Assembly: GCA_030682405.1 (NCBI GenBank)
Contig: JAUXOF010000038.1
Location: 1,044-65,043, forward strand
Direction of reading: 5' to 3'
Length of the DNA: 64,000 nucleotides
Source of the DNA: Thermodesulfovibrionales bacterium
Lineage (GTDB): Bacteria > Nitrospirota > Thermodesulfovibrionia > Thermodesulfovibrionales > JdFR-86
Part shown: piece by piece, positions 39,367 through 55,679 of the stretch
Layout: each line of letters opens with the position of its first letter
How positions within the stretch are numbered: the first letter of the stretch is position 1
The notes under the pieces: model-generated
The model's database searches: none
Told to the model about the DNA's origin: nothing
What the model saw: the letters and a program-made list of their open reading frames with translations, nothing else
Translations under genes and position numbers: made by a program

Positions 39367-40350
39367 TTGTTTAAATCTAAGAGACTCATCAGGATAGCAG
39401 CAGCATTATTGTTTCTCGTGGTTGTCTTCGGGGCCACGGCCTTGTTTGCATCCGATGCAGCGGATGTGGCTAAAAATGCCCTTCCTCTTACCGAGGAGAG
39501 CAGTATGCCGTGGTGGGGCTGGCCTCTCATCCTTTTTGTGGTCACTTTCATTCTCGGGATACTGGCGGTATTGGGCGGGGTCGGCGGTGGGGTTCTGTTC
39601 GTCCCCATCATAGGGGGTTTTTTCCCCTTCCATCTGGATTTCGTAAGGGGGGCAGGGCTTCTGGTTGCTCTGGCGGGCGCGCTGGCCGCAGGGCCCGGGC
39701 TTCTTAAAAGGGGACTTGCCGACCTAAGGCTGGCAATACCAGTGGCTCTAATAGCGTCTTCCTTCGCTATAGTGGGCGCGATGATAGGCCTTGCGCTTCC
39801 CACAAACGTAGTGCAGACCGCGCTCGGAGCGACCATACTCGGCATCGTCGCTATCATGCTGATGGCAAAGAAATCGGAGTACCCTGAGGTCAAGCAGGCC
39901 GACGCCCTCTCCACGGCGCTGAGGATAAACGGCATATACACCGAGGTATCCACAGGCGAGGAGATAAACTGGCAAATACACAGGACAGTAAAGGGCCTCC
40001 TGCTTTTCATAATCGTCGGAGTGATGGCTGGCATGTTCGGACTCGGCGCAGGCTGGGCAAATGTGCCGGTGCTAAACCTCCTGATGGGCGCCCCGCTTAA
40101 GATCTCAGTTGCAACGAGTAAATTCCTGCTTTCCATAACGGACACCTCTGCGGCATGGGTATACATCAACAACGGCGCGGTGCTGCCAATGATAGTGGCG
40201 CCCTCGATAGTGGGGATAATGCTCGGTTCGATAGTGGGAGTGAAAATCCTCGTAAAAACGAAGCCGGCGGCGGTCAAATATATCGTCATCGTCATGCTCC
40301 TTTTTGCAGGGGCAAGGGCGTTTCTTAAGGGCCTCGGCATCTGGACATAA
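39367..40350 (+). CDS. TauE/SafE (DUF81) family anion exporter-type permease
   Basis: GVGGGVLFVPIIGG and a second-half repeat GLGAGWANVPVLNLL. 8-TM profile. TTG start after GAAGGAGGAG. Confidence 0.75.
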   Translation: MFKSKRLIRIAAALLFLVVVFGATALFASDAADVAKNALPLTEESSMPWWGWPLILFVVTFILGILAVLGGVGGGVLFVPIIGGFFPFHLDFVRGAGLLVALAGALAAGPGLLKRGLADLRLAIPVALIASSFAIVGAMIGLALPTNVVQTALGATILGIVAIMLMAKKSEYPEVKQADALSTALRINGIYTEVSTGEEINWQIHRTVKGLLLFIIVGVMAGMFGLGAGWANVPVLNLLMGAPLKISVATSKFLLSITDTSAAWVYINNGAVLPMIVAPSIVGIMLGSIVGVKILVKTKPAAVKYIVIVMLLFAGARAFLKGLGIWT

Positions 40351-40382
40351 GGTAAGGATTATCGCATAAAGGAGGATTTAAA

Positions 40383-40796
40383 ATGGCCAAGAATCAGGCT
40401 ACGGAAGAGCAGATTAAATATGCCGGAATGTTAGATAAAGGGATGAAGATAGGGTTTGTTCTCGTAGTCGTCTCGTTCATTCTCTACATAACAGGGATAA
40501 TGGCCCCGTATCTCCCCATAAACGACCTTCCGAAATACTGGGGCATGCCGGTTCACGACTACCTGAAGGCAACGAACATACACATGGGCTGGGCATGGCT
40601 TGGGATGCTACAGAAGGGCGATTTTATCAACTTCATCGGCATAGCGTTCCTTGCCGGAGTGACCATACCGTGCTACATCGCAATTATGCCGATATTCCTT
40701 AAGAAAAAGGACAAGGTGTATTTCACCCTTGCCCTTTTAGAGGTGACGGTGCTTGCACTTGCGGCATCCGGCCTCCTTAAGTCCGGCGGACATTGA
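40383..40796 (+). CDS. DUF1634-like small membrane protein (usual TauE partner)
   Basis: 137 aa with 3-4 TM. The C-terminal FLKKKDKVYFTLALLEVTVLALAAS resembles the DUF1634 end. It lies immediately downstream of the TauE gene. Confidence 0.5.
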   Translation: MAKNQATEEQIKYAGMLDKGMKIGFVLVVVSFILYITGIMAPYLPINDLPKYWGMPVHDYLKATNIHMGWAWLGMLQKGDFINFIGIAFLAGVTIPCYIAIMPIFLKKKDKVYFTLALLEVTVLALAASGLLKSGGH

Positions 40797-40943: not shown

Positions 40944-41825
40944 ATGGGTGACAAGATTTTTGCAAAATTAGACAACCTTCTCATCACCACGGACGGCTCG
41001 GAGTTCAGCGAGGGCGCAGTAAGGGAGGGCATAAGGCTTGCCAAAAACTCAGGCGCAAAAGTCACGGCCCTCTATGTAGTGGAGTTCAATCCCGAGTTCG
41101 AGGCCCTCGCCCCGAATCTCGTGGAGAAGATGGAGATAGAGGCCGCCGGGCAACTGAAGGGCATAAAGGAGAAGGCAGTAAAGGAGGGCGTCTCCTGCAC
41201 AATATTCATGAGAAGGAGCGACAGCCCTTACAAGGCGATAGTGGATGAGGCGGCAGGGGAATCCGCCGACGTGATAGTCATGGGCAGGCGCGGAAGGACC
41301 GGCCTTAAGAGGCTTCTCATGGGAAGCGTCACGGCAAAGGTCATAGGCCACGCCCGGTGCAATGTCCTCGTGGTTCCGAGGGCCGCAAACATATACCTGA
41401 GAAATATCCTCATAGCGACCGACGGCTCCAGATACGGCATCGAAGCCGCCTCTATGGCGGTGGGCATAGCAAAACGCTCAGCGGCGAACCTTATTGCCGT
41501 ATCCGTTGTGCCCTCGGAGGCAGCCCCATTTATACAGGCGGAGATGCAAAAGGGCCTCATCGCCGAAAAAGAGCTCAAGGAGGCTGAAAAAAATGTCGCC
41601 GCCGTAAAGGCGATGGCTCAAAAAGAAGGCATCAGCGCAGAAGGGATTGTCGCGGCCGGCCACCTCCACGAGGCGATTCTGGAGATTGCAAAGGAAAAGA
41701 ATGTCGACCTGATCGTAGTGGGCAGCCATGGAAGAACAGGGATAACGAGGCTCCTCATGGGCTCGGTTGCCGAGAGGGTCATCGGACATGCCGATTGTGC
41801 AGTGCTCGTGGTGAAGGCCGGCTAA
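40944..41825 (+). CDS. Tandem-domain universal stress protein
   Basis: Two UspA domains, each with the ATP-binding G-x2-G-x9-G(S/T) motif (GRRGRTGLKRLLMGS and GSHGRTGITRLLMGS). Confidence 0.85.
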   Translation: MGDKIFAKLDNLLITTDGSEFSEGAVREGIRLAKNSGAKVTALYVVEFNPEFEALAPNLVEKMEIEAAGQLKGIKEKAVKEGVSCTIFMRRSDSPYKAIVDEAAGESADVIVMGRRGRTGLKRLLMGSVTAKVIGHARCNVLVVPRAANIYLRNILIATDGSRYGIEAASMAVGIAKRSAANLIAVSVVPSEAAPFIQAEMQKGLIAEKELKEAEKNVAAVKAMAQKEGISAEGIVAAGHLHEAILEIAKEKNVDLIVVGSHGRTGITRLLMGSVAERVIGHADCAVLVVKAG

Positions 41826-43189
41826 GCCTCCACGTTTTCGAGCCCGTATTTCTTGAGCTTCCTCCAGAGCGAGACCCTGTCAATGCCGAGTATCTGTGCG
41901 GCAAGGGTCTTGTTGCCTCCGACCTCCCTGAGAACCCATTTTATGTAGGACTCCTCCTGCTCCTCGAGCGCGGGGATTCTGCCTTCCTTCTTCCTGAATA
42001 TCCTTACGGTAAGCTCCCTCAGGTCTTCGGGCAGGTGTGCGACCTCTATGGCAGAGCTGTTTGAGAGGGCAACGCCCCTTTCTATTATGTTTTCAAGCTC
42101 CCTCACATTGCCGGGGAAGTCGTAGTTCATAAGGATGAAGGTGACATCCTCCGAGATATTGCCGACGGTCTTTTTCATAAGCGAGGAATACTTCTTGATG
42201 AAGTAATAAGCCAGTAGCGGGATGTCCTCCTTTCTTTCGGCAAGCTGGGGTATATGGAGCGAGACGACATTGAGCCTGAAGAACAGGTCCTGCCTGAAAC
42301 GGCCCTCCTTTATGGAGTCCTTGATGTTCCGGTTGGTCGCCGCAACGAACCTCACGTCCACCCTGACGGGCAAAGTGCCGCCCACCCTCAGGAACTCTTT
42401 TTCCTGTATGGCCCTGAGGAGCTTGACTTGCATCGAAGTGGGCATCTCGGTTATCTCGTCGAGGAACAGCGTGCCTCCGGAGGCCATCTCTATAAGGCCC
42501 TTTTTCATCTCGGTTGCGCCCGTGAATGCCCCTTTTTCGTGCCCGAAGAGCTCGTTTGAAAGAAGCTCCTCTGTGAATGCCCCGCAGTTGATGGCATAGA
42601 ACAGGCCCCCCGCCCTTTTGCTTGCGTAGTGGATGTATCTGGACAGAAGCTCCTTGCCGGTGCCGGATTCGCCGGTGACGATTATATTGCAGTCGGTGGG
42701 GGCGAGCTGCCTTGCAGTATCGAGGAGGGCCAGCATCTTCGGGTTCTGCGTGATTATCTTAACCTTGCCGGAAAAGCTCTCAAGCTGGCTACGGAGCTCT
42801 TCGTTTTCCTTCTTGAGCCTCACCTTCTCAATGGCCTCCCACACGACCTTCCTTACCTCGTCGAGCTTGAAGGGCTTCGCTATGTAGTCGTATGCGCCCT
42901 TTTTCATCGCCTGTATGGCGGACTTTATGGTCGCATACCCTGTTATCATTATGACCTCGGCATCGGGGTAAAGGTCCCTGCACTTTTTCAATATCTGCAT
43001 CCCGTCGACCTTTTCCATCTTCAGGTCCGTAAGCACGACATCGAACCACTGCTCATCGAGGAGCTTGAGGGCATTAGGCCCTTGTTGTGTCCCTACGACC
43101 TCGTACCCCTCCTTCTCCATGACATGCTGGAGGTTTCTGAGGGCAATCTGCTCGTCATCGACGATCAGGATTTTTGCCTTATATTTCAT
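41822..43189 (-). CDS. Sigma-54-dependent response regulator (NtrC family)
   Basis: REC (DLKMEKVDG), Walker A GESGTGKE, GAFTGA (EKGAFTGA), and a C-terminal HTH. Confidence 0.9.
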   Translation of the reverse strand: MKYKAKILIVDDEQIALRNLQHVMEKEGYEVVGTQQGPNALKLLDEQWFDVVLTDLKMEKVDGMQILKKCRDLYPDAEVIMITGYATIKSAIQAMKKGAYDYIAKPFKLDEVRKVVWEAIEKVRLKKENEELRSQLESFSGKVKIITQNPKMLALLDTARQLAPTDCNIIVTGESGTGKELLSRYIHYASKRAGGLFYAINCGAFTEELLSNELFGHEKGAFTGATEMKKGLIEMASGGTLFLDEITEMPTSMQVKLLRAIQEKEFLRVGGTLPVRVDVRFVAATNRNIKDSIKEGRFRQDLFFRLNVVSLHIPQLAERKEDIPLLAYYFIKKYSSLMKKTVGNISEDVTFILMNYDFPGNVRELENIIERGVALSNSSAIEVAHLPEDLRELTVRIFRKKEGRIPALEEQEESYIKWVLREVGGNKTLAAQILGIDRVSLWRKLKKYGLENVEA

Positions 43190-44613
43190 GGACCGGTCTC
43201 CTTTAACGGTAGTTTTATCGTAAATGTTGTCCCCTGCCCCGGGGTGCTGTCCACCTCTATAGTGCCTTCGTGATCTTCGATGATCTCGCGGGCGACGAAA
43301 AGCCCGAGACCCGAGCCCTTTCCCTCGGCCTTTGTCGTAAAAAACGGGGTGAATATCTTCTCCATTTCCTCGGCCTCTATCCCCGTGCCTGTGTCCTGAA
43401 TCTTTATCTCAACGGTTTTATCCGGGGTGGTTTCTCCGGCAGAGATGAGGATCGTTCCTTCGCCGGGGATAGCGTCGATGCCGTTTTTTATGATGTTCAG
43501 AATTGCCTGCTCTATCCTCTGTTTGTCGGCCATGAGCCAGAGGTCATCAGGGATGTTCACCCTCACCTCAACCTGCGTAAGGATTTCACCCCTCAGGAGC
43601 CTGAGCGTATCCTCTATCAGATCCGTGAGAGGCAGGGGCACCCTTTCAAACTCTTTCTTTTTCGAAAATTCGAGGAGGGAATGTATGATGCCCTTCGCCC
43701 TTTCCACCTGTTCTTCTATCTGACCGAGCAGTTCTTTCTTAAAGCCAATATCCCCCTCCTCTATCTCCTCGCTGAGTATCTGGCAGGAGGTCGATATGTT
43801 GGAGAGGGGGTTGTTGAGCTGATGGGCGACCCCCGAGACCATCGTGCCGAGGGATATGAGTTTTTCTGACTGAAGGATAAAACTTTTCTGCCTGAGTTCA
43901 AGCTCGCTCATCATCCTCCGGAATGCACTATAGAGAGATATTATCTCTATGTCGGTCGAGTCGACCGCAAGGATATTGAACTTGCCCTCCGCAACCTTCC
44001 GCATACTGCCTTCTATCTGCTCCAACGGCCTTACGACCATGCGCGACAGATACTGGCCTATGGCACAGCCGGCTATTATGAGAAAGAAGATGGAGCCGAT
44101 GAGTATCTTCCTTGATGAGGCTATCAGTGACCGGATATATTCCCGCTCCGTCAAAGACATACGCTCCGCTTTGTCGACGATCTCGCGGCCTTTCAGCCGT
44201 ATCTTGCCTTCCATGACGTAAGCCCCTACGGTGTCGGATGTTTTATCCGTCTCGAAATATCTCTTCATAAGGGACTTGTAATCCCTGATGGCAAGCTCCA
44301 AGGCGGAGATGTAGGCTTCGATGGCAAGGCCTTCGAATGCCTCCTTGTTTTTGTTTATAATGTCCTCTGCCGTCTCAGTAAACAGCAGGTTTTGGGCGTA
44401 GTCGTCAGCGGTATTGTAGAGGATATAGTTTTTTTCGAACCTCCTCATCTCCAAGGTCGTATCAAAAAGCTCGGAGACCACCATGCTCGCCGCAACCTTC
44501 CTGTCGACCACCGTCAGATTGAAGTAATTCACCAAGGCGATGAGGACTATCAGGCCTAAACAGACATAGAAACCATAGCTTACCTTTTTGCGGATGCTCG
44601 ATTGAAAACGCAT
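43186..44613 (-). CDS. Sensor histidine kinase (periplasmic helical sensor, HAMP, HisKA, HATPase_c)
   Basis: Two TMs flanking a ~150-aa helical region, H-box SGVAHQLNNPL, and ATPase motifs DTGTGI...GSGLGL. Overlaps the regulator start. Confidence 0.85.
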   Translation of the reverse strand: MRFQSSIRKKVSYGFYVCLGLIVLIALVNYFNLTVVDRKVAASMVVSELFDTTLEMRRFEKNYILYNTADDYAQNLLFTETAEDIINKNKEAFEGLAIEAYISALELAIRDYKSLMKRYFETDKTSDTVGAYVMEGKIRLKGREIVDKAERMSLTEREYIRSLIASSRKILIGSIFFLIIAGCAIGQYLSRMVVRPLEQIEGSMRKVAEGKFNILAVDSTDIEIISLYSAFRRMMSELELRQKSFILQSEKLISLGTMVSGVAHQLNNPLSNISTSCQILSEEIEEGDIGFKKELLGQIEEQVERAKGIIHSLLEFSKKKEFERVPLPLTDLIEDTLRLLRGEILTQVEVRVNIPDDLWLMADKQRIEQAILNIIKNGIDAIPGEGTILISAGETTPDKTVEIKIQDTGTGIEAEEMEKIFTPFFTTKAEGKGSGLGLFVAREIIEDHEGTIEVDSTPGQGTTFTIKLPLKETGP

Positions 44614-44791: not shown

Positions 44792-44807
44792 TGGCATGAA
44801 TGTTGAT
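44792..44807 (+). promoter_or_regulatory. Sigma-54-like -24/-12 element upstream of the small-ORF operon
   Basis: TGGCATGAATGTTGAT has correct GG-N10 spacing, but the -12 is GA rather than GC. It closely resembles the 9248 element TGGTATGAATATTGCT. It lies 48 nt upstream of the ATG at 44855. Confidence 0.3.
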
Positions 44808-44854
44808 ATATGTATCTTTAAAGGCCCACGAGGGCTATTCAAAGGAGGTGCAGG

Positions 44855-45022
44855 ATGAAGGGTATCGTGAAAAAACTGGGGGACATCTTCTCGGCGGTCG
44901 CATTTGCCGAAGAGGGCGAGCATGAGACGGCAAGGGAGATTATGAGGGGAGTCGAGCCTGAGAAGAAGGCCGAAAGCCCCGAGCCGCTGGGGGTCGGGGG
45001 CTTTTTAGCAGAGGAGAACTGA
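44855..45022 (+). CDS. 55-aa protein carrying the SAVAFAEEGE motif (below the ORF-track size cutoff)
   Basis: AAAGGAGGTG RBS at 44841-44850. MKGIVKKLGDIFSAVAFAEEGEHETAREIMRGVEPEKKAESPEPLGVGGFLAEEN. The stop overlaps the next ATG (TGATG). Confidence 0.55.
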   Translation: MKGIVKKLGDIFSAVAFAEEGEHETAREIMRGVEPEKKAESPEPLGVGGFLAEEN

Positions 45023-45492
45023 TGGGCAGTTTCGATGACCTGATGTCGGCGGTCACCTTTGCCGAAGAGGGCGAATCAGGGAAGGCGAGGGAGATACTCG
45101 GCGGCAAAAAGACGGTACTCCTTGCCATATCCGACAGGCTGTTGGACAAAAACGCCTTAAAGTATGCCCTTAGCATCTGTAGTCGCCTGAGGGCCAATCT
45201 CGAGATACTTTACGTGACCGAAACAGACAGGGCAAAGACGAGGCTCAAGGAATTCCTCTCCGAGTTCGGCAGTTTCTCTGCCGAACTCAACTGTGTAGTA
45301 AAAGGAGGATGCGTTAAAAAAGCGATTCTCGACCACACCAACGAGAAGCGGGCGATAGAATTCGTCGTCATAGGCTCGACTCCTGAGCTTGAGACAGGAT
45401 GCAGAGCAGACAAAAGGCTCTCGTCGGAATGGGAGAAACTCAGGTGCCCCCTCGTAGTTGTATCCAAGGGGCCACTGCCTGAAGGAGTGTAA
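45022..45492 (+). CDS. USP-like (adenine-nucleotide alpha-hydrolase fold) protein with an N-terminal SAVTFAEEGE motif, no ATP-binding glycine motif
   Basis: MGSFDDLMSAVTFAEEGESGKAREIL is followed by a USP-like core (VLLAISD...LEILYV...FVVIGS...CPLVVV). G-x2-G-x9-G(S/T) is absent. Confidence 0.6.
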   Translation: MGSFDDLMSAVTFAEEGESGKAREILGGKKTVLLAISDRLLDKNALKYALSICSRLRANLEILYVTETDRAKTRLKEFLSEFGSFSAELNCVVKGGCVKKAILDHTNEKRAIEFVVIGSTPELETGCRADKRLSSEWEKLRCPLVVVSKGPLPEGV

Positions 45493-45563: not shown

Positions 45564-46304
45564 ATGTTGACAGAAAATACCATTGACAGAGACGGCCAGC
45601 AGAAACTCTATGTGCAGGTCTACGGCAGCATCAAGGATAAGATAGAGAGATGCCAATGGCCGGTATCCGCACAGATACCGACCGAGGATGAGCTCTGCAT
45701 TACCTACGGTGTCAGCAAGGCCACGGTAAGGATAGCAATCTCCAACCTCGTAAGGGACGGCTACCTCAGGAGGCAGCAGGGCAAGGGAACGTTTGTGGCC
45801 AGTTCCATGCCTCACATGGGGATGGCGATGAGGACGATTTTTACGGAGGACATGTTCGGAGAGGGGGTGAAAGCAAAAAAAGAAGTGCTGGTAAAAGGGA
45901 TAAAAGAGCCGCCTGAGGACATAAAGGAATATCTTAAGGCTAAAGACGATATCTTCTACGTCTTCCTAAAAAGGCTTGTTGACGGCGAGCCCGCATATGT
46001 GGAAGAGTCCTTCATCCCGCTTCAGGTGTTCCCCGGAGTGGCGAGCGAGGACATAAGCCGTGCGTCATTTTATGACCTTATACAGGAAAAAGCGGTCAGA
46101 AAGATATTCAAGGTGGTTCAGACCATAGAGATTACAATGTTGAGGGGCGATATTGCGGCCGTGCTGAAACGGCCGGAAGGCTCGCCGGCGCTGCTTCTGC
46201 ACAGGCTGCTTTTGGGCTCCAACGAAATCCCCATAGCCTATACGAGGCTTACGGGAATCGGCGGAAAGTACAAGATACAGACCGAATTCGAAAGGGTCAA
46301 ATAA
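45564..46304 (+). CDS. GntR-family (HutC-type, UTRA effector domain) transcriptional regulator
   Basis: wHTH IPTEDELCITYGVSKATVRIAISNLVRDGYLRRQQGKGTFV and a ~160-aa C-terminal UTRA-like domain. Confidence 0.85.
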   Translation: MLTENTIDRDGQQKLYVQVYGSIKDKIERCQWPVSAQIPTEDELCITYGVSKATVRIAISNLVRDGYLRRQQGKGTFVASSMPHMGMAMRTIFTEDMFGEGVKAKKEVLVKGIKEPPEDIKEYLKAKDDIFYVFLKRLVDGEPAYVEESFIPLQVFPGVASEDISRASFYDLIQEKAVRKIFKVVQTIEITMLRGDIAAVLKRPEGSPALLLHRLLLGSNEIPIAYTRLTGIGGKYKIQTEFERVK

Positions 46305-46317
46305 CTATACGGAGGTT

Positions 46318-47607
46318 TTGGAAATGAGTTTTCCAAGGAAGGTTTTTGAGTTTCTCAAGGCGTCCTCCGTAGCCCACGCAAAGTGGGACTACGAGGTCTC
46401 GATGTCAATTCTTAAAAACAGGAAGAAGATGCTGATACTCCTTGCCCTGTGCCTGCCCATACTGGCGGTTACGATGCTTGAGGCAGGCGACATGATAGGC
46501 AGCAAAACGGCATATGCCCCGGCGTTCTACTCGACGGGCATATTCCTCGCCTCCATAGCCATAGGGCTTTGCGCCGGCCTGATAACCGGGTGCATCGGGG
46601 CGGGCGGAGGCTTCATAATAACCCCTGCCCTCATGGCGGCAGGCGTCAAGGGAATCCTCGCAGTAGGCACCGACCTCTTCCACATATTCGCAAAGGCGAT
46701 AATGGGCACGTCCGTGCACAAGAAACTCGGCAACGTCTCGGTGAAGCTGGCCGGTGCGTTCCTTGTGGGCTCTGCCGGCGGCACATTCATAGGCGGGGCA
46801 ATCAACAAGGGGCTTTACGATAAGGACCCGCTCCTTAGCGAGGCGTTCATAAGCCTTGTGTATGCGGTGCTCTTAGGCTTTTTAGGGTTTTACGCCCTCG
46901 CCGACTTCCTCAAGTCAAGGAAAGGGAGCGCGGGCGGGGACGCCCACGGCGGGCCTTCCGGCGCGACCGGGCTTTCCATAAAGGTCCAGAATATAAAAAT
47001 CCCGCCCTCAATAACCTTTGACGAGGACTATGTGCCCGGCGGCAAGAAGATATCCGGCGTAATAGTGGCGGCAGGCGGCGTCATCGTCGGCATAATGGCC
47101 GCTATAATGGGCGTGGGCGGAGGGTTCATCACCTTCCCGATGTTCGTCTATGTCTTTGGGGTTTCCTCTATGACCACGGTTGGCACGGACATCCTCCAGA
47201 TAATCTTCACCGCAGGGCTTGCGGCAGTAGCCCAGTACGCAATCTACGGCTATGTCTTTTACAGCCTGGCGATGGGCATGCTCCTCGGCTCCCTGATAGG
47301 CATACAGATCGGCGCCCTCACAACAAAGGTCGTAAAGGGCATCCACATCAGGGGCTTCTATGCAGTTTCAATACTCGCGGGCTTTATAAACAGGGCAGCA
47401 ACCCTTCCAAAGAAGCTCACGGAGCTTGAGGTCATAAACCTCTCCAAACCCCTTGTCAATGGGATTGAGTCCGCAGGCAATGTCATATTCTGGATAGTCG
47501 TCAGTGCATTTGCGGTTTGGGTAATAAGCAAGTTCGTAACCAACATAGGCACATTAAGGGGCGAGGACGAAGCGGCAGCCCCTGTGCTTGCAAAGGAGAA
47601 GGTATAA
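46318..47607 (+). CDS. TauE/SafE (DUF81) family permease, long form
   Basis: GCIGAGGGFIITPALMAAG and MGVGGGFITFPMFVYVFG half-repeats with a long central hydrophilic loop. The ATG at 46324 is an alternative start. Confidence 0.75.
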   Translation: MEMSFPRKVFEFLKASSVAHAKWDYEVSMSILKNRKKMLILLALCLPILAVTMLEAGDMIGSKTAYAPAFYSTGIFLASIAIGLCAGLITGCIGAGGGFIITPALMAAGVKGILAVGTDLFHIFAKAIMGTSVHKKLGNVSVKLAGAFLVGSAGGTFIGGAINKGLYDKDPLLSEAFISLVYAVLLGFLGFYALADFLKSRKGSAGGDAHGGPSGATGLSIKVQNIKIPPSITFDEDYVPGGKKISGVIVAAGGVIVGIMAAIMGVGGGFITFPMFVYVFGVSSMTTVGTDILQIIFTAGLAAVAQYAIYGYVFYSLAMGMLLGSLIGIQIGALTTKVVKGIHIRGFYAVSILAGFINRAATLPKKLTELEVINLSKPLVNGIESAGNVIFWIVVSAFAVWVISKFVTNIGTLRGEDEAAAPVLAKEKV

Positions 47608-47608
47608 C

Positions 47609-48319
47609 ATGCTGATAAAAAACAAAAAAATTTTTAGCCTTGGGATGGTTTTTGCGATAACCTTCCTTGGGGTGCTGGTCCTCATATTCTCGCCGGTCTT
47701 CAAAGGCCAAAACGGCCTTGATTTTGCAGACAACAGCTTCAACAAGCTCTCCAAAGGCTCCTCGTACTTCATCCCCAAGGTGACAAAGGCGGTAAAGGAA
47801 TTCGCCGGAAAGTCGGTATCCGTCACCCTGAAATACGACAAACCCGAGGAGGCGGAGGCCGCGGCCAAGCTCTTCACCACGGCAGGAGCGCAGGCCGAGG
47901 TAAGCGGCGCGGAGCTTAAGGTTCAGGGAGACCTCGGCGCAATCCTTCAGTCCGCGGTCAACGATTCCGACGCAATGTACAAAAACGACGGCAAGACAGT
48001 CGCCGACAGATACGGCATGGACGAGAAGGCCGCAATGAAGAGCTGGTGGACGGCCCTCTCCAAGATGGAAAAGAACATGAAGAAGGAAAAGCTCATCGCG
48101 GAGGGCAAGGTAATCTACGAGGTGAACAAGAAGGCCGTGGAGCCGGGGTACAACTACTACAAAATAGATGCTCAGAATGTGAGCGAACACTCAGGCATGA
48201 TGACCGGGCTGCTCGTCTTCTACGTCGCATACACCATGTGGTGGGGATATGCCATATTCTACCTCTTCGAGGGGGTCGGCCTCACCATGAAGAAGTCAAA
48301 GGTTAAAAAGGAAATATAG
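47609..48319 (+). CDS. Hypothetical bitopic/polytopic membrane protein (partner of the TauE-like permease)
   Basis: AAGGAGAAGG RBS. N-terminal TM (IFSLGMVFAITFLGVLVLIF), a ~150-aa soluble region, and C-terminal TMs (MMTGLLVFYVAYTMWWGYAIFYLF). No family recognised. Confidence 0.6.
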   Translation: MLIKNKKIFSLGMVFAITFLGVLVLIFSPVFKGQNGLDFADNSFNKLSKGSSYFIPKVTKAVKEFAGKSVSVTLKYDKPEEAEAAAKLFTTAGAQAEVSGAELKVQGDLGAILQSAVNDSDAMYKNDGKTVADRYGMDEKAAMKSWWTALSKMEKNMKKEKLIAEGKVIYEVNKKAVEPGYNYYKIDAQNVSEHSGMMTGLLVFYVAYTMWWGYAIFYLFEGVGLTMKKSKVKKEI

Positions 48320-48328
48320 GAGGAGGAT

Positions 48329-48766
48329 ATGAATATATTGGTTCCGGTTGATGGCTCGAAGTGTTCGCTTGAGGGTTTGAAGGTTGCGAGGGATTACGCA
48401 AAAACGAAAGACGCAAACATATACCTGATTAATGTAACACCCTACATTGAGTTTGTTGACCTTGAGATTTCGGCTTCCGAGAGGGAGAAGCTAACACAGA
48501 GCATGGAAAAACGGTCAGACGATATAGTCAACCAGGCTTGTAAGATGCTGTCGGCGCAGGATGTTATCGCGACATGTAAGACTGTTACGGCCTCTGTTTC
48601 CGTGCCCGATGCGATAATAGACTTCGCGGAAAAGGAAAAGATAAACCTCATAATCATCGGCAGTAGAGGCCTGGGCACATCTAAAAAGTTCAGGCTTGGC
48701 AGTATCGCCGCAAAAGTGGTGAGGCATAGCCACTGCGGCGTTTATGTAGTCAAAGAGCCCTGCTAA
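48329..48766 (+). CDS. Universal stress protein (single UspA domain)
   Basis: ILVPVDGS...IIGSRGLGTSKKFRLGS (G-x2-G-x9-GS)...CGVYVV. Confidence 0.85.
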   Translation: MNILVPVDGSKCSLEGLKVARDYAKTKDANIYLINVTPYIEFVDLEISASEREKLTQSMEKRSDDIVNQACKMLSAQDVIATCKTVTASVSVPDAIIDFAEKEKINLIIIGSRGLGTSKKFRLGSIAAKVVRHSHCGVYVVKEPC

Positions 48767-48872: not shown

Positions 48873-51128
48873 TTGGAAGAAAAAAAGCTTTCCCTTTCCG
48901 GTCTCAGGCGACTAATAATTCGCCTGATAGAGAGGTTTTGCCCCTTTAATGTGACATTGCTTCAGGTTATGGTCGGCCTTTTTACGGCAGTAATGCTCCT
49001 TGTGGTGCTTATATTAGGCTGGATGTCCTCTACAAAGGTAAAAGAAGTCGTGACCATGGACTTCAATCAACAGCAGTTGGTCCTCGCACAACATGCAGCC
49101 GGACAGATAGAGAACAATCTGAACTCATTGAAAAGGGAGATGTCCCTCCTCAGTCTTTCCCCTTCCGTGCAGTACTCCGAGGCGGTCTTTATGGGCAGCC
49201 GGATGGGGATTGCCTTTTCAAGCATTAAGGACAGCGGCGGACTGGACATAAGGTTCATTGAGGCCGGAAAACCCCTGACCCACATGGTGGATGACCATGG
49301 ATACCGGAGAGCGCGTCCTGCCCCGGAGGATAAATATTATCTTGAGTGGGCAAGGCGGAAAGAAAATAGGGGCAGTACAATAATAAGCGCTGTCTCCCCT
49401 GTGATATATGGAGACGGCAGGCATAAGCTCGCAATGAAGATGGCGCTGCCTGTCTATCAGGTCTCGGTTGACGAGACCCATCGGATGGCAACGAATAAAT
49501 TCTCCGGGGTCCTGATATTCCTCGTAGATGCGACCGGGCTAATAGAGGAAATAACAAAGGGTATAAAGTCGGGCAAGACCGGCTATGCATGGGTCATGGA
49601 TAAAAACGGGATATTCCTTTACCACCCCGAAAGCAAGTTTATAGGCAAAGATGCCTTCACCGCACGCGAGGAAAAAAAGCCCACAATATCCTTTGCGAGG
49701 ATTAATGAGATTCAGAAAGAGATGATGCTGGCCGGAAAAGAGGGCACAAGCTGGTATATTTCAGGATGGCACAAAGGCGTTGAGGGCGAGATGAAGAAGC
49801 TGATTGCCTATACCCCGATTAGCCTCGGTGGTTCATCCGGCCAGCTATGGTCGGTTGCAGTCGTGGCCCCCATAAGCGAAGTGGCAGATGCAGTTCATTC
49901 TATCCAGGTCCGCCAGATTTCGCTTCAGGCTGTCATCATCGCCGTAATTTTATTGGGCGGAATGGCAGTTACATACCTGATTGTTAACTGGTCGGACATG
50001 CTCAGTCAGGAGGTCGAGAAGAAAACCGCAGAAGTCAAAAAGTCCGAGCAGAGGTACATGTCCCTTGTTGAGAATGCAGAGGACGTCATATTCACCGTGG
50101 ATTGCAGCGGAAACTATCTTTCGATAAACAGATATGGCGCACAGTTCCTCGGCAGCACCCCTGATGGTATCATAGGCCGCAACCTATCGGAAGTCCTCTT
50201 ATGGCCCTCCGGCGAGGCGATGCTCATGGCGGTCATGGACGTGTTTGAAAGCAAAAAAGGCAGCCAGATAACACACCCTGTTAAAATAGGCGAGCAGGAG
50301 TACTGGCTTAACACCAACTTCAGGAGGCTCATGGACGGCGAAGGCAACGTCTACGCCGTTCTGGGCATATCGAGGGACATCACGGACAGGAAGAAGATGG
50401 AGGAGAGGAGCTACCATACAGAGAAACTGGCCTCTATGGGCACTCTTGCCGCAGGCGTGGCGCATGAGATAAACAACCCCCTCGGCATCATCCTCGGCTT
50501 TACGGACCTGCTACTGGAGAAAACAGGGCGGGGGACCGAGGAGCACGATATGCTTGAGACGATAGAAAAGCACGGTCTGCGCGCCAAAAGGGTCGTGGAG
50601 AACCTTCTGAGCTTCGCCAGGTACTCGGAATATAAAGAGGAACTCGTCAATATCAACGACAACATAAAGGACGTGCTATCGGTAGTTGAAAACACCCTGC
50701 GTGTGAACAAGATTTTCCTCAAACAGGAGCTTCAGGACGGGCTGCCGCCTGTCGGTGGGTGCGCGGAGGAACTGCAGCAGGTATTCTTCAACATAATAAC
50801 CAACGCGGTCTCAGCCATGAAAAAAGGAGGCGCACTGACGGTTGCGACACGGAGCATAAACGGGCAGCAGGTAGAGGTCAGATTCGCCGACACCGGAGAC
50901 GGCATAAGAAAGGAGCATAGGGACAGGATATTCGACCCGCTGTTCACCACTAAGAAGATAGGCGAGGGGACGGGCCTTGGCCTTTCGGTCTCTTATGGCA
51001 TTATAATGAAGTACGGAGGAACTATCAGTTTTGAGACAAAGACGGAAGATGAATCCTTTGAAACAGGGACGACTTTTATAATAACCCTGCCGGCGGCAAA
51101 AACGCTTACGGATAAGAACGCCGGCTGA
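48873..51128 (+). CDS. Sensor histidine kinase (Cache-type periplasmic domain, PAS, HisKA, HATPase_c)
   Basis: Two TMs around a ~300-aa region with YAWVMDKNGIFLYHP (Cache-like). PAS (SLVENAEDVIFTVD), H-box AGVAHEINNPL, and ATPase DTGDGI..GTGLGL. Confidence 0.85.
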   Translation: MEEKKLSLSGLRRLIIRLIERFCPFNVTLLQVMVGLFTAVMLLVVLILGWMSSTKVKEVVTMDFNQQQLVLAQHAAGQIENNLNSLKREMSLLSLSPSVQYSEAVFMGSRMGIAFSSIKDSGGLDIRFIEAGKPLTHMVDDHGYRRARPAPEDKYYLEWARRKENRGSTIISAVSPVIYGDGRHKLAMKMALPVYQVSVDETHRMATNKFSGVLIFLVDATGLIEEITKGIKSGKTGYAWVMDKNGIFLYHPESKFIGKDAFTAREEKKPTISFARINEIQKEMMLAGKEGTSWYISGWHKGVEGEMKKLIAYTPISLGGSSGQLWSVAVVAPISEVADAVHSIQVRQISLQAVIIAVILLGGMAVTYLIVNWSDMLSQEVEKKTAEVKKSEQRYMSLVENAEDVIFTVDCSGNYLSINRYGAQFLGSTPDGIIGRNLSEVLLWPSGEAMLMAVMDVFESKKGSQITHPVKIGEQEYWLNTNFRRLMDGEGNVYAVLGISRDITDRKKMEERSYHTEKLASMGTLAAGVAHEINNPLGIILGFTDLLLEKTGRGTEEHDMLETIEKHGLRAKRVVENLLSFARYSEYKEELVNINDNIKDVLSVVENTLRVNKIFLKQELQDGLPPVGGCAEELQQVFFNIITNAVSAMKKGGALTVATRSINGQQVEVRFADTGDGIRKEHRDRIFDPLFTTKKIGEGTGLGLSVSYGIIMKYGGTISFETKTEDESFETGTTFIITLPAAKTLTDKNAG

Positions 51129-51143: not shown

Positions 51144-51566
51144 ATGCCTGAGAAACTCTTGATAGTGGACGATGAGCCGGATATGCTGAAGCTTTTGAAC
51201 ATGATTATCAAAGAAAGGACGCCGTATGAAACGCTGACCACAAATAACCCCATTGAGGCGCTCAAGCTGGTCCGGCAGGGAGGGTTCGACCTCGTCATAG
51301 CGGACCTGAAGATGCCCGGGCTTGACGGCATGGAACTACTGGATGCGGTGAGGCTCGCTGATGAGGATATCCCCGTCATCATCATAACCGCATATGGCAC
51401 GGTCGAGGCGGCAATAGAGACTATGCGCAGGGGCGGCTTTGACTTCATATCAAAGCCCTTCAGAAAAGAGCAGATACTCTTCACCATAGACAAGGCCCTG
51501 AAATGGGTCGGCCTCCAGAAGGAAAACAGGATACTGAAGGAGCAGCTTAAGAAACTCAGCGGCTGA
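51144..51566 (+). CDS. Stand-alone receiver-domain response regulator (NtrC-type REC plus linker, no output domain)
   Basis: LIVDDEPD...DLVIADLKMPGLDG...KPF, then the linker LQKENRILKEQL and a stop. The 3' end overlaps the convergent gene by 11 nt. Confidence 0.8.
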   Translation: MPEKLLIVDDEPDMLKLLNMIIKERTPYETLTTNNPIEALKLVRQGGFDLVIADLKMPGLDGMELLDAVRLADEDIPVIIITAYGTVEAAIETMRRGGFDFISKPFRKEQILFTIDKALKWVGLQKENRILKEQLKKLSG

Positions 51567-54162
51567 GGTGAAGCCTCAGGAAATCGTTCAAAAACATCTC
51601 GGTGACAGCATCGTTGTACATGGCCATGTCAAGCTGCTTGGTGTAGACCGTCAGCTTTCCCATCTTCTCAAGTGTCTCCTCGATGTCCGACTGCCTGTAT
51701 TTGGTCAGGTTGGCGTCTATCACGTCCTCAATCACGGTTACCCTGAAATCCAGTTTTTTGAGGATATCCGTTATCAGCCTGACCCTCCTTAACCTCCTGT
51801 CCGTGGCGGCCCCTCCGCCCTTAAAAAAGAATTTTATGTAATTGTCGTTTATGTTGTCGCCGGCATATGCCTCCACCATCGAGAAGTGATAGCCGAGCCT
51901 TATGCTGAAATTCATGTAATTGCGGGACACTATCGCATAGCTCTTGCCTCCCATTTTGCGGAGCTCCTCCTCCTGTATGGTGGTCGTATGCGCAACCATC
52001 CCCAGAAACCCCTTGACGTCTGCGGACCTCGGTTCCGGCCATTTCATGCCCGTCAGTCCCCTCAGGAACGCGCTGAAGGGTATGGAGACTATATCCTCAG
52101 GCGCAACCTTCCTTAAATCGCCCTTTATGCCCCCTTCGATATCAAGCAGATGGGCGTCTATGGGGATGCCGGCCTTAAGCGCGCTTGTTTGGGAACCGAG
52201 CCTCTTTGCGTCGCCGGCCTCCGCAAAGGCGACTGCCGAAAGCAGGTCCTCAAGGCTGTCAATGGCCTGCCCCTTGCCTGTCTTGAATATCTCGGCCATC
52301 GCCATCTCATGGACAAATCTCGTTATGTCATGAAACGTCCTGCATGAGTCCGCCCTGAAGTCCTTGTCGTCGGGGTCCACAAGGTTGAGCGGGACTATTA
52401 GCTTCAGAACCCTCTGAAGCGTCTGGAACAGGCGCGTGTCTTTAAAGGGTTCCCTTCGTTTTGTGGCGCACTTAAGCACCTCCTCGACCCTGCCCTCATA
52501 GATGTTGCAGTTAATCGCATCCACTGTCACTTCCTGCCCGTCCCTTATCAGCCGCGTTGCATCGCCGGCATCGAGAATCGTCGGGATGCCGTATTCCCTT
52601 GAAAGGGACGCCATATGCCCGGTGGCGCTGCCTACGTCGGTGACGATGGCAGAGGCCTTGTTCATCACGGTAACGAATTTTGTTGAACTGTGTCTTGCCA
52701 CAAGCACGGCGCCATCGGGGAAATCCTTCAGTCCCTCGTCGTCCCTGAATATAAATGCCTTCCCTGAGGCCGCGCCCTTGCAGGCTATGACCCCCCCGCT
52801 TATAAGGACGTTATACCCCTCCACGCGCAAAGGCACGCTGCATGAAGGCTGCCCCGCCTCAACCGTCATTAACGGCCTGCTCTGAAGGATATTCACGCAG
52901 CCGTCCCGGGCAACGGCCCACTCTATGTCCTGAGGCCTGCCGTAATGTTCCTCAAGGGCAATGGCATAGTCAAAGAGGCTTTCTATCTGTTCGCCTGATA
53001 GAGACGGCCTGTCCCAAAGCCCTTCAGGGACGCCGACCTCCATTATATCGCCTTCAGGGCTGCACACGAGCATCTTCCGCTGCCCGTGCGCGGCCTCGGA
53101 CAGGACGGCCCCGGTCTGTCTTGAGACGATGTACGAATCCGGGGTCTCCGTTCCGTCTACAACTGATTTTCCAAGCCCCCGCATGGCGTTGATGATAACC
53201 TTATCGCCTTCAGGCTCGTTGGGGTCCCTTGTGTAGACCACCCCTCCGGAGGCGGCATCCACCATCGTAAGGACGCCGACTGCCATGACCATATCGTCTT
53301 CGGAAAAACCCCTTGTCTTATAGTAGAAGATGGCCTGATGGGTAAAGAGGCTTGATATTACCTCCTTATATTTGCTGAGAATCGAATCTCCGGGCACATT
53401 CAGAAAAGTGGCGTACTGCCCTGCAAAACTGAAATCCCCGTCTTCGTAGATTGCGCTGCTTCTGACCGCCACCCTCGCAGCCGCACCCGCCTTCAGGCAA
53501 AGCTCGGAATACGCCTTCATGACAGTGTGTTGCAAATCCGCAGGGATTTCCGCATCCGCCACCATGCCCTGTATCTGATTGCTCGTCTCTGTGAGTTCGT
53601 TAAGGTCGTCAATCCCCATCTCCGAAAGCCTTTTGTTTATCCTGTCAGCAAGCCTGTTGTGCTCCATAAACCTCTTGAAGGCATATGCGGTGATTGAAAA
53701 GCCATCCGGCGTCTGGAACTTCAGGCGGTTTTTGATTTCGCCGAGGTGTGCGATTTTGCCGCCGGCGATGCCGGACATCTCCTTTGTAATGGAGGAAAGC
53801 GCAATGGCAAGGTCGCTGACCGGAATCTCAAGTTTGCGGGTCAGGGTGTTTGAGATTTCCTCCTTTATGCCCCCGTAAACTTTATATAACTGCATGTATT
53901 CGCCATTGGAAAGGTCATTCATGTGCTCTATAATCTTAAAAACCCCTTCGGATACATGCAGTACGCTCTCGTTGATATACTGCCTATCAAAGAGGTACTC
54001 CCCGGAAAGCTTCTCCTCCATGTCAGCCATAAGCATCAGGACATTGTTGTTTTCCTTCAGTAGGGACTGAAAAGCAGTATACTTTTTCCTTAATGCCTCC
54101 ATAAGGCCGTCATGCTGAACCTTTTTGGGTTTTTTGCGGAATTTTTCAAAAAAACCCTTCAT
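51556..54162 (-). CDS. PEP-utilising-enzyme family protein: PPDK_N-type ATP-grasp plus swivel phospho-His domain plus ~330-aa non-TIM C-terminal region
   Basis: IAGGKIAHLGEI and VAVRSSAIYEDGDFSFAGQYATFLNV (nucleotide-binding domain). TDVGSATGHMASLSREYGIPT (mobile His domain). The C-terminus lacks the NDLTQ/CGE motifs seen in the ppdK of this window and contains LLSAVAFAEAGD. Confidence 0.75.
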   Translation of the reverse strand: MKGFFEKFRKKPKKVQHDGLMEALRKKYTAFQSLLKENNNVLMLMADMEEKLSGEYLFDRQYINESVLHVSEGVFKIIEHMNDLSNGEYMQLYKVYGGIKEEISNTLTRKLEIPVSDLAIALSSITKEMSGIAGGKIAHLGEIKNRLKFQTPDGFSITAYAFKRFMEHNRLADRINKRLSEMGIDDLNELTETSNQIQGMVADAEIPADLQHTVMKAYSELCLKAGAAARVAVRSSAIYEDGDFSFAGQYATFLNVPGDSILSKYKEVISSLFTHQAIFYYKTRGFSEDDMVMAVGVLTMVDAASGGVVYTRDPNEPEGDKVIINAMRGLGKSVVDGTETPDSYIVSRQTGAVLSEAAHGQRKMLVCSPEGDIMEVGVPEGLWDRPSLSGEQIESLFDYAIALEEHYGRPQDIEWAVARDGCVNILQSRPLMTVEAGQPSCSVPLRVEGYNVLISGGVIACKGAASGKAFIFRDDEGLKDFPDGAVLVARHSSTKFVTVMNKASAIVTDVGSATGHMASLSREYGIPTILDAGDATRLIRDGQEVTVDAINCNIYEGRVEEVLKCATKRREPFKDTRLFQTLQRVLKLIVPLNLVDPDDKDFRADSCRTFHDITRFVHEMAMAEIFKTGKGQAIDSLEDLLSAVAFAEAGDAKRLGSQTSALKAGIPIDAHLLDIEGGIKGDLRKVAPEDIVSIPFSAFLRGLTGMKWPEPRSADVKGFLGMVAHTTTIQEEELRKMGGKSYAIVSRNYMNFSIRLGYHFSMVEAYAGDNINDNYIKFFFKGGGAATDRRLRRVRLITDILKKLDFRVTVIEDVIDANLTKYRQSDIEETLEKMGKLTVYTKQLDMAMYNDAVTEMFLNDFLRLHLSR

Positions 54163-54355: not shown

Positions 54356-55102
54356 ATGATTAAACAAGAACGGTCAGTAAACAGGGACAAGCCCCAAAAG
54401 CTCTATATCCAGCTCCTCGATATAATAAGGGAAAGGATAGAGGCTGGCGAATGGCCTGTAGGCTCGCAGATACCTATAGAGGAGGAGCTATGCAGGGTTT
54501 ATGGAGTGAGCAAGGCCACAGTGAGGTTTGCGGTCTTGGAGCTTGTAAGAAAGGGCTATCTCAAGCGGCAGCAGGGCAAGGGCACCTTCGTCTGTAAAAG
54601 GGTCATACCCGAAGGGCTTACAATGTCAAGCAGCTTCAAGGAGCTGATGCTTGAGCACGGGATAGCCTACACCACCATACTGCTCGCCCAGACGGTGCTG
54701 ATGCCGATAGACGACCTTGACGTAAAGCTCGAAATCCCTGAAAACACCCATGTCATATACATAAAAAGACTGCGGAGCGTGGAGGGCGAGCCTGCCGTGA
54801 TTCAGGAATCCTTCATCCCACACCACATATGCCCTTCCCTTCTTAAGGAGGATGTTGTGGAAAACTCCCTGTTTGAGCTCTTCGAGAACAAATACGACAT
54901 AACCATTACCGGGGTCAGGGACTTCATAGAGGTCGCATACTCCAGCGCAGGCGAAAGCAAGCTCCTTGGGCTTCCGAAAGACTCGCCGGTGCTGCTGCTT
55001 GAGCAGCACTTCTACTCAGGGGAGTCGCAGATAATGTACATGCGCTCTGTGAAGCGCCCGGAGAGGTTCAGGCTGTCCATAGATTTCAAGAAAAAGGAGT
55101 GA
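54356..55102 (+). CDS. GntR-family (HutC-type, UTRA) transcriptional regulator, paralogue of 45564..46304
   Basis: IPIEEELCRVYGVSKATVRFAVLELVRKGYLKRQQGKGTFV is nearly identical in the HTH to the other GntR. The effector domain has diverged. Confidence 0.85.
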   Translation: MIKQERSVNRDKPQKLYIQLLDIIRERIEAGEWPVGSQIPIEEELCRVYGVSKATVRFAVLELVRKGYLKRQQGKGTFVCKRVIPEGLTMSSSFKELMLEHGIAYTTILLAQTVLMPIDDLDVKLEIPENTHVIYIKRLRSVEGEPAVIQESFIPHHICPSLLKEDVVENSLFELFENKYDITITGVRDFIEVAYSSAGESKLLGLPKDSPVLLLEQHFYSGESQIMYMRSVKRPERFRLSIDFKKKE

Positions 55103-55145: not shown

Positions 55146-55667
55146 ATGGCAGGGACTAAGACTGTAAAGGATTTGATGGTCGGCGTTTTTGACTTCCCGC
55201 ACATACCTTATTGGTTCACGATAAGGCAGGCAATCGGAATCATCAGGGTGTCATTTTTAAGCACAAAGAAATACCCCCAGCCCATGGCGATACTCGTGTT
55301 TGACGAAAAGTACAACCTTCTGGGCACGCTCGGTCTTAAGGATATCCTGAGGGGGCTTGAGCCGAGATTTCTAAGGCCCACGACAAAGGCGCAGGTGCAT
55401 GCAGAGGACGAATCCGGGCTTTCCGTACTTTGGGACACCCCCTTTGACACGGAATCTAAAAAGAACGCAGAGCGGCCTGTAAGCGAGGTTATGACTTCTA
55501 CAAAGTTCTTCGTCAAACCCGAAGACCCCATCACAAAGGCGGCATACCTCATGGTCCATAACGACCTTGCCCTGCTGCCCGTTCTGGAGGATAAGAAGAA
55601 GTTTGTGGGATTGATAAGGATGATAGAGATATTCGATGAACTGTCAACCGCAATCTTAGCGGAATAA
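55146..55667 (+). CDS. CBS-domain pair protein
   Basis: Two CBS-like units (VKDLMVG...LLGTLGLKDILRGL and VSEVMTSTKFFVKPEDPITKAAYLMVHNDLALLPVLEDKKKFVGLIRMIEI). Confidence 0.7.
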   Translation: MAGTKTVKDLMVGVFDFPHIPYWFTIRQAIGIIRVSFLSTKKYPQPMAILVFDEKYNLLGTLGLKDILRGLEPRFLRPTTKAQVHAEDESGLSVLWDTPFDTESKKNAERPVSEVMTSTKFFVKPEDPITKAAYLMVHNDLALLPVLEDKKKFVGLIRMIEIFDELSTAILAE

Positions 55668-55679
55668 AGGAGATACTAT

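Follow-up and report, generated by a model that had tools for sequence, protein, structure and literature searches.

The window analysed here is a stretch of 64,000 nucleotides (nt) from a Thermodesulfovibrionales bacterium (assembly GCA_030682405.1, contig JAUXOF010000038.1 of 65,361 bp, positions 1,044 to 65,043), and the element under study is a SAVxFAExGE stretch that recurs in three of its proteins, namely a small protein of 55 amino acids (aa), a protein resembling universal stress proteins (USPs) and an enzyme resembling phosphoenolpyruvate (PEP) synthase. The repeated stretch is a real, conserved and hitherto uncatalogued module of about 25 residues, which is referred to below as the hairpin, after its predicted shape. 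The genes that carry it and the signals in front of them are as follows.

44792-44807, plus strand: sigma-54-type promoter-like site TGGCATGAATGTTGAT, 47 nt upstream of the ATG of the small open reading frame (ORF)
44842-44849, plus strand: ribosome-binding site AAGGAGGT, read from the sequence
44855-45022, plus strand: 55-aa free-hairpin protein (hairpin at aa 8-30, nt 44876-44944; tail not conserved)
45022-45492, plus strand: 156-aa USP-like protein with an N-terminal hairpin (aa 4-26, nt 45031-45099)
51556-54162, minus strand: 868-aa PEP-synthase-like enzyme, with a PPDK_N ATP-grasp domain, a mobile His domain and a 300-aa C-terminal domain of unknown family
52195-52257, minus strand: insertion of about 20 aa, SLEDLLSAVAFAEAGDAKRLG, at aa 636-656 of the enzyme, in its C-terminal domain

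An earlier note, made from the letters of the window, had placed copies of the motif in the small ORF, the USP-like gene and the 868-aa enzyme, and all three were recovered. In a search of the window with a profile hidden Markov model (HMM) of the motif they scored 58, 57 and 42 bits, and the next-best stretch scored 5.9 bits; a 10-residue pattern was found three times in the six-frame translation of the window, against an expectation of 3e-6. The DNA of the two adjacent core copies, described as about 90% identical, agreed at 27 of 29 bases (93%), and 48 of 66 bases were identical when the comparison covered 22 codons. The small ORF had been called unannotated; in GenBank, however, it is entered as hypothetical protein Q8J64_03855 of a Thermodesulfovibrionales metagenome-assembled genome. 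The strong ribosome-binding site claimed for it was confirmed, as AAGGAGGT lies 5 nt before the ATG, and so was the coupling to the next gene, the stop codon of the small ORF and the ATG of the USP-like gene overlapping by one base (TGATG).

An ORF and HMM pipeline was applied to 80 loci from species-representative genomes, 120 metagenome stretches and several contigs fetched by protein; loci and proteins of this collection are cited below by L and P numbers. Small ORFs equivalent to the 55-aa ORF were observed ahead of the USP-like gene in many loci. The entropy in 66 distinct small ORFs was 0.76, 0.47 and 1.67 bits at codon positions 1, 2 and 3, respectively, and their six core codons showed 7178 synonymous as against 1000 non-synonymous differences. 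The small hairpin ORFs are protein-coding and under selection. A duplication artefact or a non-coding small ORF was ruled out by the conservation across genomes together with the codon-position entropy.

A 31-column profile of the motif (A2), built from three contexts, was searched against 1.84 billion representative proteins and yielded 1009 protein clusters at E<=1e-3, including 102 at E<=1e-10. Among the matches listed, which were the best 150 of the 1009 clusters, most of the top ones were proteins of 90-135 aa with two or three copies, and others carried one to four copies ahead of USP-like domains. The earlier statement that this is not a named domain was upheld, since no Pfam or NCBIfam model matched at its cut-off; the only sub-threshold matches to the motif were to tetratricopeptide repeat (TPR) models, EIIA-Lac-hairpin and FimV_Cterm. 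Likewise, a literature text search for the motif strings and for a link between the enzyme and receivers returned no paper describing either. The profile also cross-matched seven stretches of a 971-aa pentatricopeptide-repeat (PPR) protein (P0209), indicating that lone weak profile matches can be generic TPR/PPR-like helices.

The motif was aligned in 327 distinct instances, which gave [KR]-phi-E-x-phi-M-x-A-[VIA]-[TAS]-F-A-E-[AE]-G-E-[FHY]-[ED]-T-A-R-E-phi-phi as consensus. When positions are counted from the Phe of the core (F0), conservation was 98% for A-3, 97% for F0, 97% for A+1, 94% for E+2, 96% for G+4 and 95% for A+9. The consensus divides into a helix A (phi-E-D-phi-M-x-A-phi-[TA]-F-A-E), a turn (x-G-E) and a helix B ([FHY]-[ED]-T-A-R-E-phi-phi). 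The helix-turn-helix hairpin that had been supposed was predicted by AlphaFold2 (AF2) for each motif of the two-repeat homologue P0002, with a predicted local distance difference test score (pLDDT) of 84 and helices at residues 2-19 and 23-30 and at residues 41-52 and 56-62. A fold search with the P0002 model against the Protein Data Bank (PDB) gave no significant match. No Ser, Thr, Tyr, His or Asp that could serve as a phospho-acceptor was conserved among the 327 instances; position -4 was Ser, Thr, Ala, Val or Met in 27, 23, 21, 12 and 12% of them, and position -1 was Thr, Ala or Ser in 47, 38 and 12%. A metal-binding Glu/His cluster is unlikely, as the position of the 'His' is occupied by Phe, His, Tyr or Trp in equal measure, which indicates an aromatic packing position. 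Mimicry of the H-box in the DHp domain of kinases (SAVAF compared with SGVAH of the neighbouring kinases) was also considered, and was rejected at an hhalign probability of 0.07%.

Hairpins were found in several kinds of host protein. These were free small proteins of 45-70 aa with a single hairpin; 'class A' proteins with two or three hairpins and a C-terminal F(L)xxVGLxGVRxxYG motif (alignment A4); USP-like proteins of about 157 aa with the hairpin at the N terminus; a second USP-like class in which one hairpin, or in some cases a pair, is inserted behind the second strand, near residue 45; single-domain response regulators of about 150 aa with the hairpin straight after the receiver domain; and the PEP-synthase-like enzyme family, with loop insertions at two sites. 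The receiver domains of the hairpin-tailed regulators passed the Pfam cut-off for Response_reg with 46.8-111.8 bits over residues ~6-117. The motif is not specific to the three window proteins or to the enzyme, the earlier reading being too narrow in this respect, and it also forms the tail of receiver domains. Where hairpins are repeated, they are parted by variable linkers of 10-25 residues. In the arbitrary metagenome sample only free, USP-like and receiver hosts were seen, and no fusion to a kinase, an activator or a permease.

Some of these hosts showed further features. In class A (P0002, P0207-P0338; L085, L082, L072, L140, L150, L179) the last hairpin carries a conserved Cys (FAEADC/ANC/AGC), and the C-terminal F(L)xxVGLxGVRxxYG motif is sometimes duplicated. 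USP-like ORFs of 201-203 aa in L020, L034, L036, L043 and L015 hold a tandem pair of hairpins in one internal loop, so that copy number varies within a single host position. Mini-proteins that trail the cassettes carry a very basic tail, in which the closing ...RP(x)3LRA is conserved (L001 13448-13630, L003 13430-13606, L009, L029, L049 and L050; also P0003, P0199, P0216 and P0247), and this tail may be a second short linear motif.

Of the USP-like protein 67 homologues were compared, all of them from Nitrospirota-type metagenomes; nearly all have the motif at the N terminus, and F13, A14, E15, G17, E18 and A22 were each at least 90% conserved. The earlier assignment of this protein to a USP fold without the ATP glycine motif was corroborated by AF2, by Foldseek and by the family consensus. 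The core was predicted with a pLDDT of ~80-88, and the top 30 Foldseek matches of this core were all USPs, including UspA, TeaD and the USP domain of KdpD, with E values down to 1.3e-5. The Pfam cut-off for Usp (PF00582, 24 bits) was not reached, the match being 20.3 bits over residues 30-79 only. The G-x2-G-x9-G(S/T) ATP motif of the UspFG type is missing from the family consensus (...VGSTPELDIECKxGEKxLSxAWKxLKCPLVVV), which recalls the non-ATP UspA type. Residues 1-27, which contain the hairpin, had a pLDDT below 50. Intramolecular packing of the hairpin on the USP core is thus unsupported, and the low values fit a segment that folds or binds in trans. Three Cys residues are near-invariant in this family, C97 (GCMKK), C127 and C142 (CPLVVV), and in a USP fold without the glycine motif they may constitute a redox or metal-sensing site.

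The 868-aa enzyme matched PF01326 (PPDK_N) with 297 bits and PF00391 (mobile His) with 71.8 bits, and its catalytic His is retained (TGHMAS, aa 514-519). It resembles PEP synthase, pyruvate phosphate dikinase and rifampicin phosphotransferase in these two domains. It differs from PEP synthase in sharing only the first two domains, in its uncurated C-terminal 300 aa and in the hairpin insertion. A Pfam search of the enzyme found nothing beyond residue 549, and the C-terminal PEP/pyruvate-binding barrel was not detected. Against the NCBIfam PEP_synth model TIGR01418 it scored 359.6, the cut-off being 739.75, with an alignment that stops at residue 598. Sequence matches in the PDB span residues 120-566, and the last ~300 residues match no solved structure. 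The missing C-terminal matches and the score below the cut-off indicate a phosphotransferase of unknown acceptor rather than a bona fide PEP synthase. Residues 560-868 (window 51556-52485) form an uncurated domain without a sequence match in Pfam, NCBIfam or the PDB, and this domain was also observed in stand-alone form (~229, 393 and 540 aa) on long contigs, one of them from an Acidobacteriota.

The third motif copy reported for the C-terminal region of the enzyme was only partly borne out. The insertion SLEDLLSAVAFAEAGDAKRLG corresponds to helix A and the turn, but the second helix (HETAREIL) is missing there. Within the family of the C-terminal domain the insertion was confined to the closest subclade, about 10 of the 120 homologues listed, and the others close the gap. 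The enzyme family has two independent hairpin insertion sites: site B, in the C-terminal domain, holds helix A and the turn only (window, L017, L077), and site A, within the PPDK_N domain, holds the full hairpin (L062, L074, L023). That the motif is a portable add-on and not part of a domain core was accordingly supported, both by the restriction of the insertion to the closest subclade and by the second subclade, in which a full hairpin stands elsewhere in the enzyme.

The genes around the hairpin genes of the window are the following.

41822-43189, minus strand: sigma-54-dependent response regulator (receiver, Sigma54_activat and HTH_8 domains; Pfam), divergent from the hairpin operon
43186-44613, minus strand: membrane histidine kinase (HAMP-HisKA-HATPase; Pfam), partner of the sigma-54 regulator
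45564-46304, plus strand: GntR/UTRA regulator (Pfam) flanked by the USP-like gene and TauE; most other cassettes lack it at this place
46318-47607, plus strand: 429-aa TauE/TSUP permease (Pfam), the usual gene after the hairpin-USP-like gene
47588-48319, plus strand: 243-aa protein with two transmembrane segments and of no known family, found after TauE in a subset of cassettes
48329-48766, plus strand: canonical USP of 145 aa (Pfam, 92.5 bits)
48873-51128, plus strand: dCache-PAS histidine kinase (Pfam)
51144-51566, plus strand: single-domain response regulator of 140 aa without a hairpin (Pfam), convergent with the enzyme gene

The promoter-like site TGGCATGAATGTTGAT in front of the small ORF was the sole match to its site pattern in the 64-kb window, and no sigma-70-like site was found in the intergenic region before the small ORF. 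Of 181 hairpin ORFs in other genomes, 35 had the pattern TGGCAY-N5-TTGMW in the 250 nt ahead of them, as compared with a background of 0.005 per 250 nt. Hairpin genes cluster, at least two hairpin ORFs being present in 62 of 84 loci. The dominant cassette opens with a histidine kinase and sigma-54 activator, placed upstream or transcribed divergently, and a sigma-54-type promoter, which are followed by the small hairpin ORF, the hairpin-USP-like gene, a TauE gene of ~429 aa and a tandem USP; sometimes the ~243-aa membrane protein follows TauE, or a hairpin mini-protein with a basic ...RPxxxLRA tail ends the series. A second cassette is headed by a class-A mini-protein, and its other members are two receivers with a hairpin tail, one plain receiver, a CBS protein and a DASS permease. 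In the 44 cassettes flanked by 5 kb or more of sequence on either side, the 5-kb vicinity held a sigma-54 activator in 84% of cases, a USP and a permease in 82% each and a TauE gene (of the 429- or the 327-aa type) in 77%; a histidine kinase, of the HAMP or the dCache/PAS type, stood beside 77%. The loci belong mostly to Nitrospirota/Thermodesulfovibrionia, and some to Thermodesulfobacteriota/Desulfobulbales, Thermoleophilia and Anaeromyxobacteraceae. A role as a targeting peptide for bacterial microcompartments or encapsulins was considered, and no shell or encapsulin genes appeared in the neighbourhood tables.

Co-occurrence of motif genes with PEP-utilising-type enzymes outside the window, as foreseen in the earlier note, was seen in 15 of the 84 loci at a distance of up to 10 kb, the two frequently sharing an operon. 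The motif is nevertheless tied far more often to sigma-54 activators, histidine kinases, TauE/DASS permeases and USPs than to the enzyme. An operon of TauE, the 243-aa protein, the enzyme and a receiver was present in L037, L073 and L093. A trio of kinase, receiver and enzyme also recurs, and the enzyme almost always lies beside a kinase and a single-domain receiver (including the window, L025, L048 and L070), which suggests that the PEP-synthase-like enzyme is itself part of a two-component circuit.

On the strength of the conserved hairpin, its occurrence in free and tethered forms encoded by sigma-54-type operons, its repeated, independent grafting and the lack of a conserved phospho-acceptor residue, we infer that the hairpin probably is a portable docking module by which the accessory signalling proteins of these operons are assembled, a reading that we hold with moderate confidence. 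The hairpin would be a protein-protein docking piece, and neither a catalytic nor a phospho-acceptor site. Evolution has grafted it onto three classes of signal-input protein, the USP-like proteins, the receivers and the PEP-synthase-like ATP/phospho-His enzyme, and it is also encoded as free mini-proteins with one to three copies. The genes of all these forms lie in or beside operons that carry a TauE/TSUP or a DASS anion permease and that would be switched on by the neighbouring histidine kinase and sigma-54 activator. In the window, the sigma-54-type promoter stands before the gene of the free 55-aa hairpin, which is translationally coupled to that of the hairpin-USP-like protein, and the enzyme, 6.5 kb away, bears helix A as a surface-loop insertion. 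In the likeliest mechanism the hairpin-tagged proteins would be assembled into a single regulatory complex, either by mutual pairing of hairpins or by binding of all hairpins to one shared partner surface, and the free and multi-hairpin mini-proteins would act as scaffold or competitor and exert feedback on the operon or its permease.

Mutual pairing and a shared partner appear roughly equally likely. Pairing is conceivable because TPR-type hairpins stack mutually and in view of what a typical cassette co-expresses, either two receivers with one hairpin each alongside a mini-protein with several, or a single USP-like hairpin alongside a free one. Several points weigh against a docking function or against one of its forms. 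The two hairpins of P0002 showed no confident mutual packing (predicted template modelling score 0.42), which does not speak for intramolecular pairing of hairpins. Hairpins of the same cassette were only marginally more alike than hairpins of different genomes (0.557 and 0.526, respectively, at the aa level). The adjacency of sigma-54 activators and kinases may reflect operon regulation alone and not a physical partner, and the acidic residues might owe their conservation to a structural role in capping the helices alone.

The alternative that survives best, which we consider possible but less probable, is that all hairpins bind one partner that itself has no hairpin, the leading candidate being the sigma-54 activator. 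The proteins made from the start of the operon would in this way act back on the activator, as PspA does on PspF, and the USP-like, receiver and enzyme hosts would bring different signals to it. The activator is the most constant neighbour (84%), and its homologues recur from cassette to cassette, while the permeases come from two families, TauE and DASS/CitMHS, that are not related; as the sole homologous protein common to cassettes with unrelated permeases, it would be the most economical partner. In addition, the hairpin genes stand first behind sigma-54-type promoters, the repeats are arranged on long variable linkers like beads on a string, and no confident packing between hairpins was predicted. 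In L091 (8001-12018), a USP-like protein with three hairpins adjoins a CitMHS+TrkA_C permease and a sigma-54 activator of 340 aa which, like PspF, has no N-terminal regulatory domain. This activator without a receiver is, however, a single case, mere operon regulation would explain the adjacency equally well, and neither a fusion of hairpin and activator nor any other direct link was seen.

A rather unlikely alternative makes the hairpin a handle for gating: through it the USP-like proteins and other accessory proteins would attach to the permease encoded nearby and act as regulatory subunits of the transporter, like the USP TeaD of TeaABC. The frequency of permeases near the cassettes (82% within 5 kb) is in agreement with this, as are the presence in these operons of USP, CBS and TrkA_C, which are all typical transporter-regulating domains, and the resemblance in fold of the USP-like core to TeaD and to the USP domain of KdpD. 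The handle would, however, need one binding surface on two unrelated permease families, and the receiver and enzyme hosts would be left unexplained. Moreover, in L025, L048 and L070 the hairpin-USP-like gene and tandem USP are followed by the kinase, receiver and enzyme, with no permease.

The earlier note had suggested that the motif mimics an autoinhibitory or substrate segment, and a role as substrate, pseudosubstrate or autoinhibitory segment of the PEP-synthase-like phosphotransferase, acting on the small and the USP-like proteins, now seems very unlikely. The enzyme does recur near hairpins (15 of 84 loci; L037, L073 and L093 have both in one operon), its family has acquired hairpins by two independent insertions, and its acceptor domain is of unknown specificity. 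The motif, however, holds no conserved Ser, Thr, Tyr, His or Asp, which makes a substrate segment improbable; such an enzyme is missing from the 10 kb around most hairpin cassettes, and most enzyme homologues lack the insertion. That the hairpin is a generic, low-information TPR-like element, or a copy that arose locally from the 5' end of the USP-like gene, without any shared function, is highly improbable, for although sub-threshold matches to TPR_4, TPR_6 and TPR_12, the cross-match to a PPR protein and the 93% identity of the adjacent DNA cores could be read in this way, the refuting case named earlier, a common hairpin scattered at random, was largely refuted by the census, with seven near-invariant positions in 327 instances, matches concentrated in one type of neighbourhood, small ORFs kept in dozens of genomes with variation at the third codon position, independent insertions in receiver, USP-like and enzyme hosts and three window copies where next to none were expected.

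The docking reading can be extended to a docking code, which as a whole we judge to be decidedly unlikely. Here the swivelling phospho-His domain of the enzyme would exchange phosphate with single-domain response regulators recruited through hairpins and thereby act as a non-kinase phosphodonor for two-component systems in a signalling pathway not recognised before. USP-like proteins and mini-hairpins would vie for the same dock, and all of them jointly would govern the uptake of sulfur oxyanions (TauE/DASS) in sulfate reducers. If this were true, the mini-proteins, the degenerate USPs, the tailed response regulators and the orphan PEP-synthase-like enzyme would be parts of one regulatory machine. 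TSUP and DASS carriers are the leading candidates for the sulfate transporters of sulfate reducers (PMC5840216). The hairpin gene set surrounds candidate permeases for sulfate or sulfur oxyanions in Thermodesulfovibrionia and Thermodesulfobacteriota. With the profile at hand, many ORFs of 45-130 aa that are easily dismissed in annotation become recognisable as real genes, and curators gain a clean new family, so far uncurated, of more than 1000 clusters.

The module resembles TPR hairpins, which as a rule mediate contacts between proteins, and single TPR-like motifs such as the one at the FimV C terminus: like them it is a helix-turn-helix of about 25-30 residues. Its A-3, F0, G+4, aromatic/His+6 and A+9 fit positions 8, 11, 15, 17 and 20 of the TPR consensus. 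The curated TPR cut-offs were not reached by the motif (25.5 against 30.1 bits for TPR_12, 18.7 against 26.3 for TPR_6 and 18 against 27 for TPR_4), and the TPR models of Pfam gave no match with the window proteins. In contrast to TPRs, the copies are single or separated by linkers (one to three) and do not form contiguous superhelical arrays of 34-residue units; the FAExGE core is near-invariant, and the motif is used as an add-on or loop insertion in enzymes and signalling domains. The use of one TPR-like hairpin by itself as a mobile insertion in such hosts is unusual.

Two regulatory systems offer further comparisons. The USP-like protein is akin to TeaD of TeaABC and to the USP domain of KdpD in its core fold (Foldseek E ~1e-5) and in the position of its gene before a permease; it differs from canonical USPs in carrying a hairpin and three near-invariant Cys and in having no nucleotide glycine motif. 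PspA, which acts on PspF, a sigma-54 activator, and Sda, a helical-hairpin anti-kinase of KinA, are small feedback regulators whose genes come first in operons under their own control. Like these, the free hairpin proteins are small and helical, and they stand first in a sigma-54-type operon beside a kinase and an activator; the likeness lies in a possible mode of action; unlike PspA and Sda, to which they show no sequence relationship, the hairpin module is also fused to other signalling domains.

A second GntR/UTRA regulator of the window (54356-55102) precedes a CBS protein and a DASS (Na_sulph_symp/CitMHS) permease at 55146-57230. The window also contains two types of TauE, each with a small membrane partner (46318-48319 and 39367-40796), and both pairs recur across loci. 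In the second pair, a TauE of 327 aa is followed by a 137-aa protein with a weak match to DUF1634, and its counterparts in related loci showed weak or faint matches to AF_1016 (PF27327).

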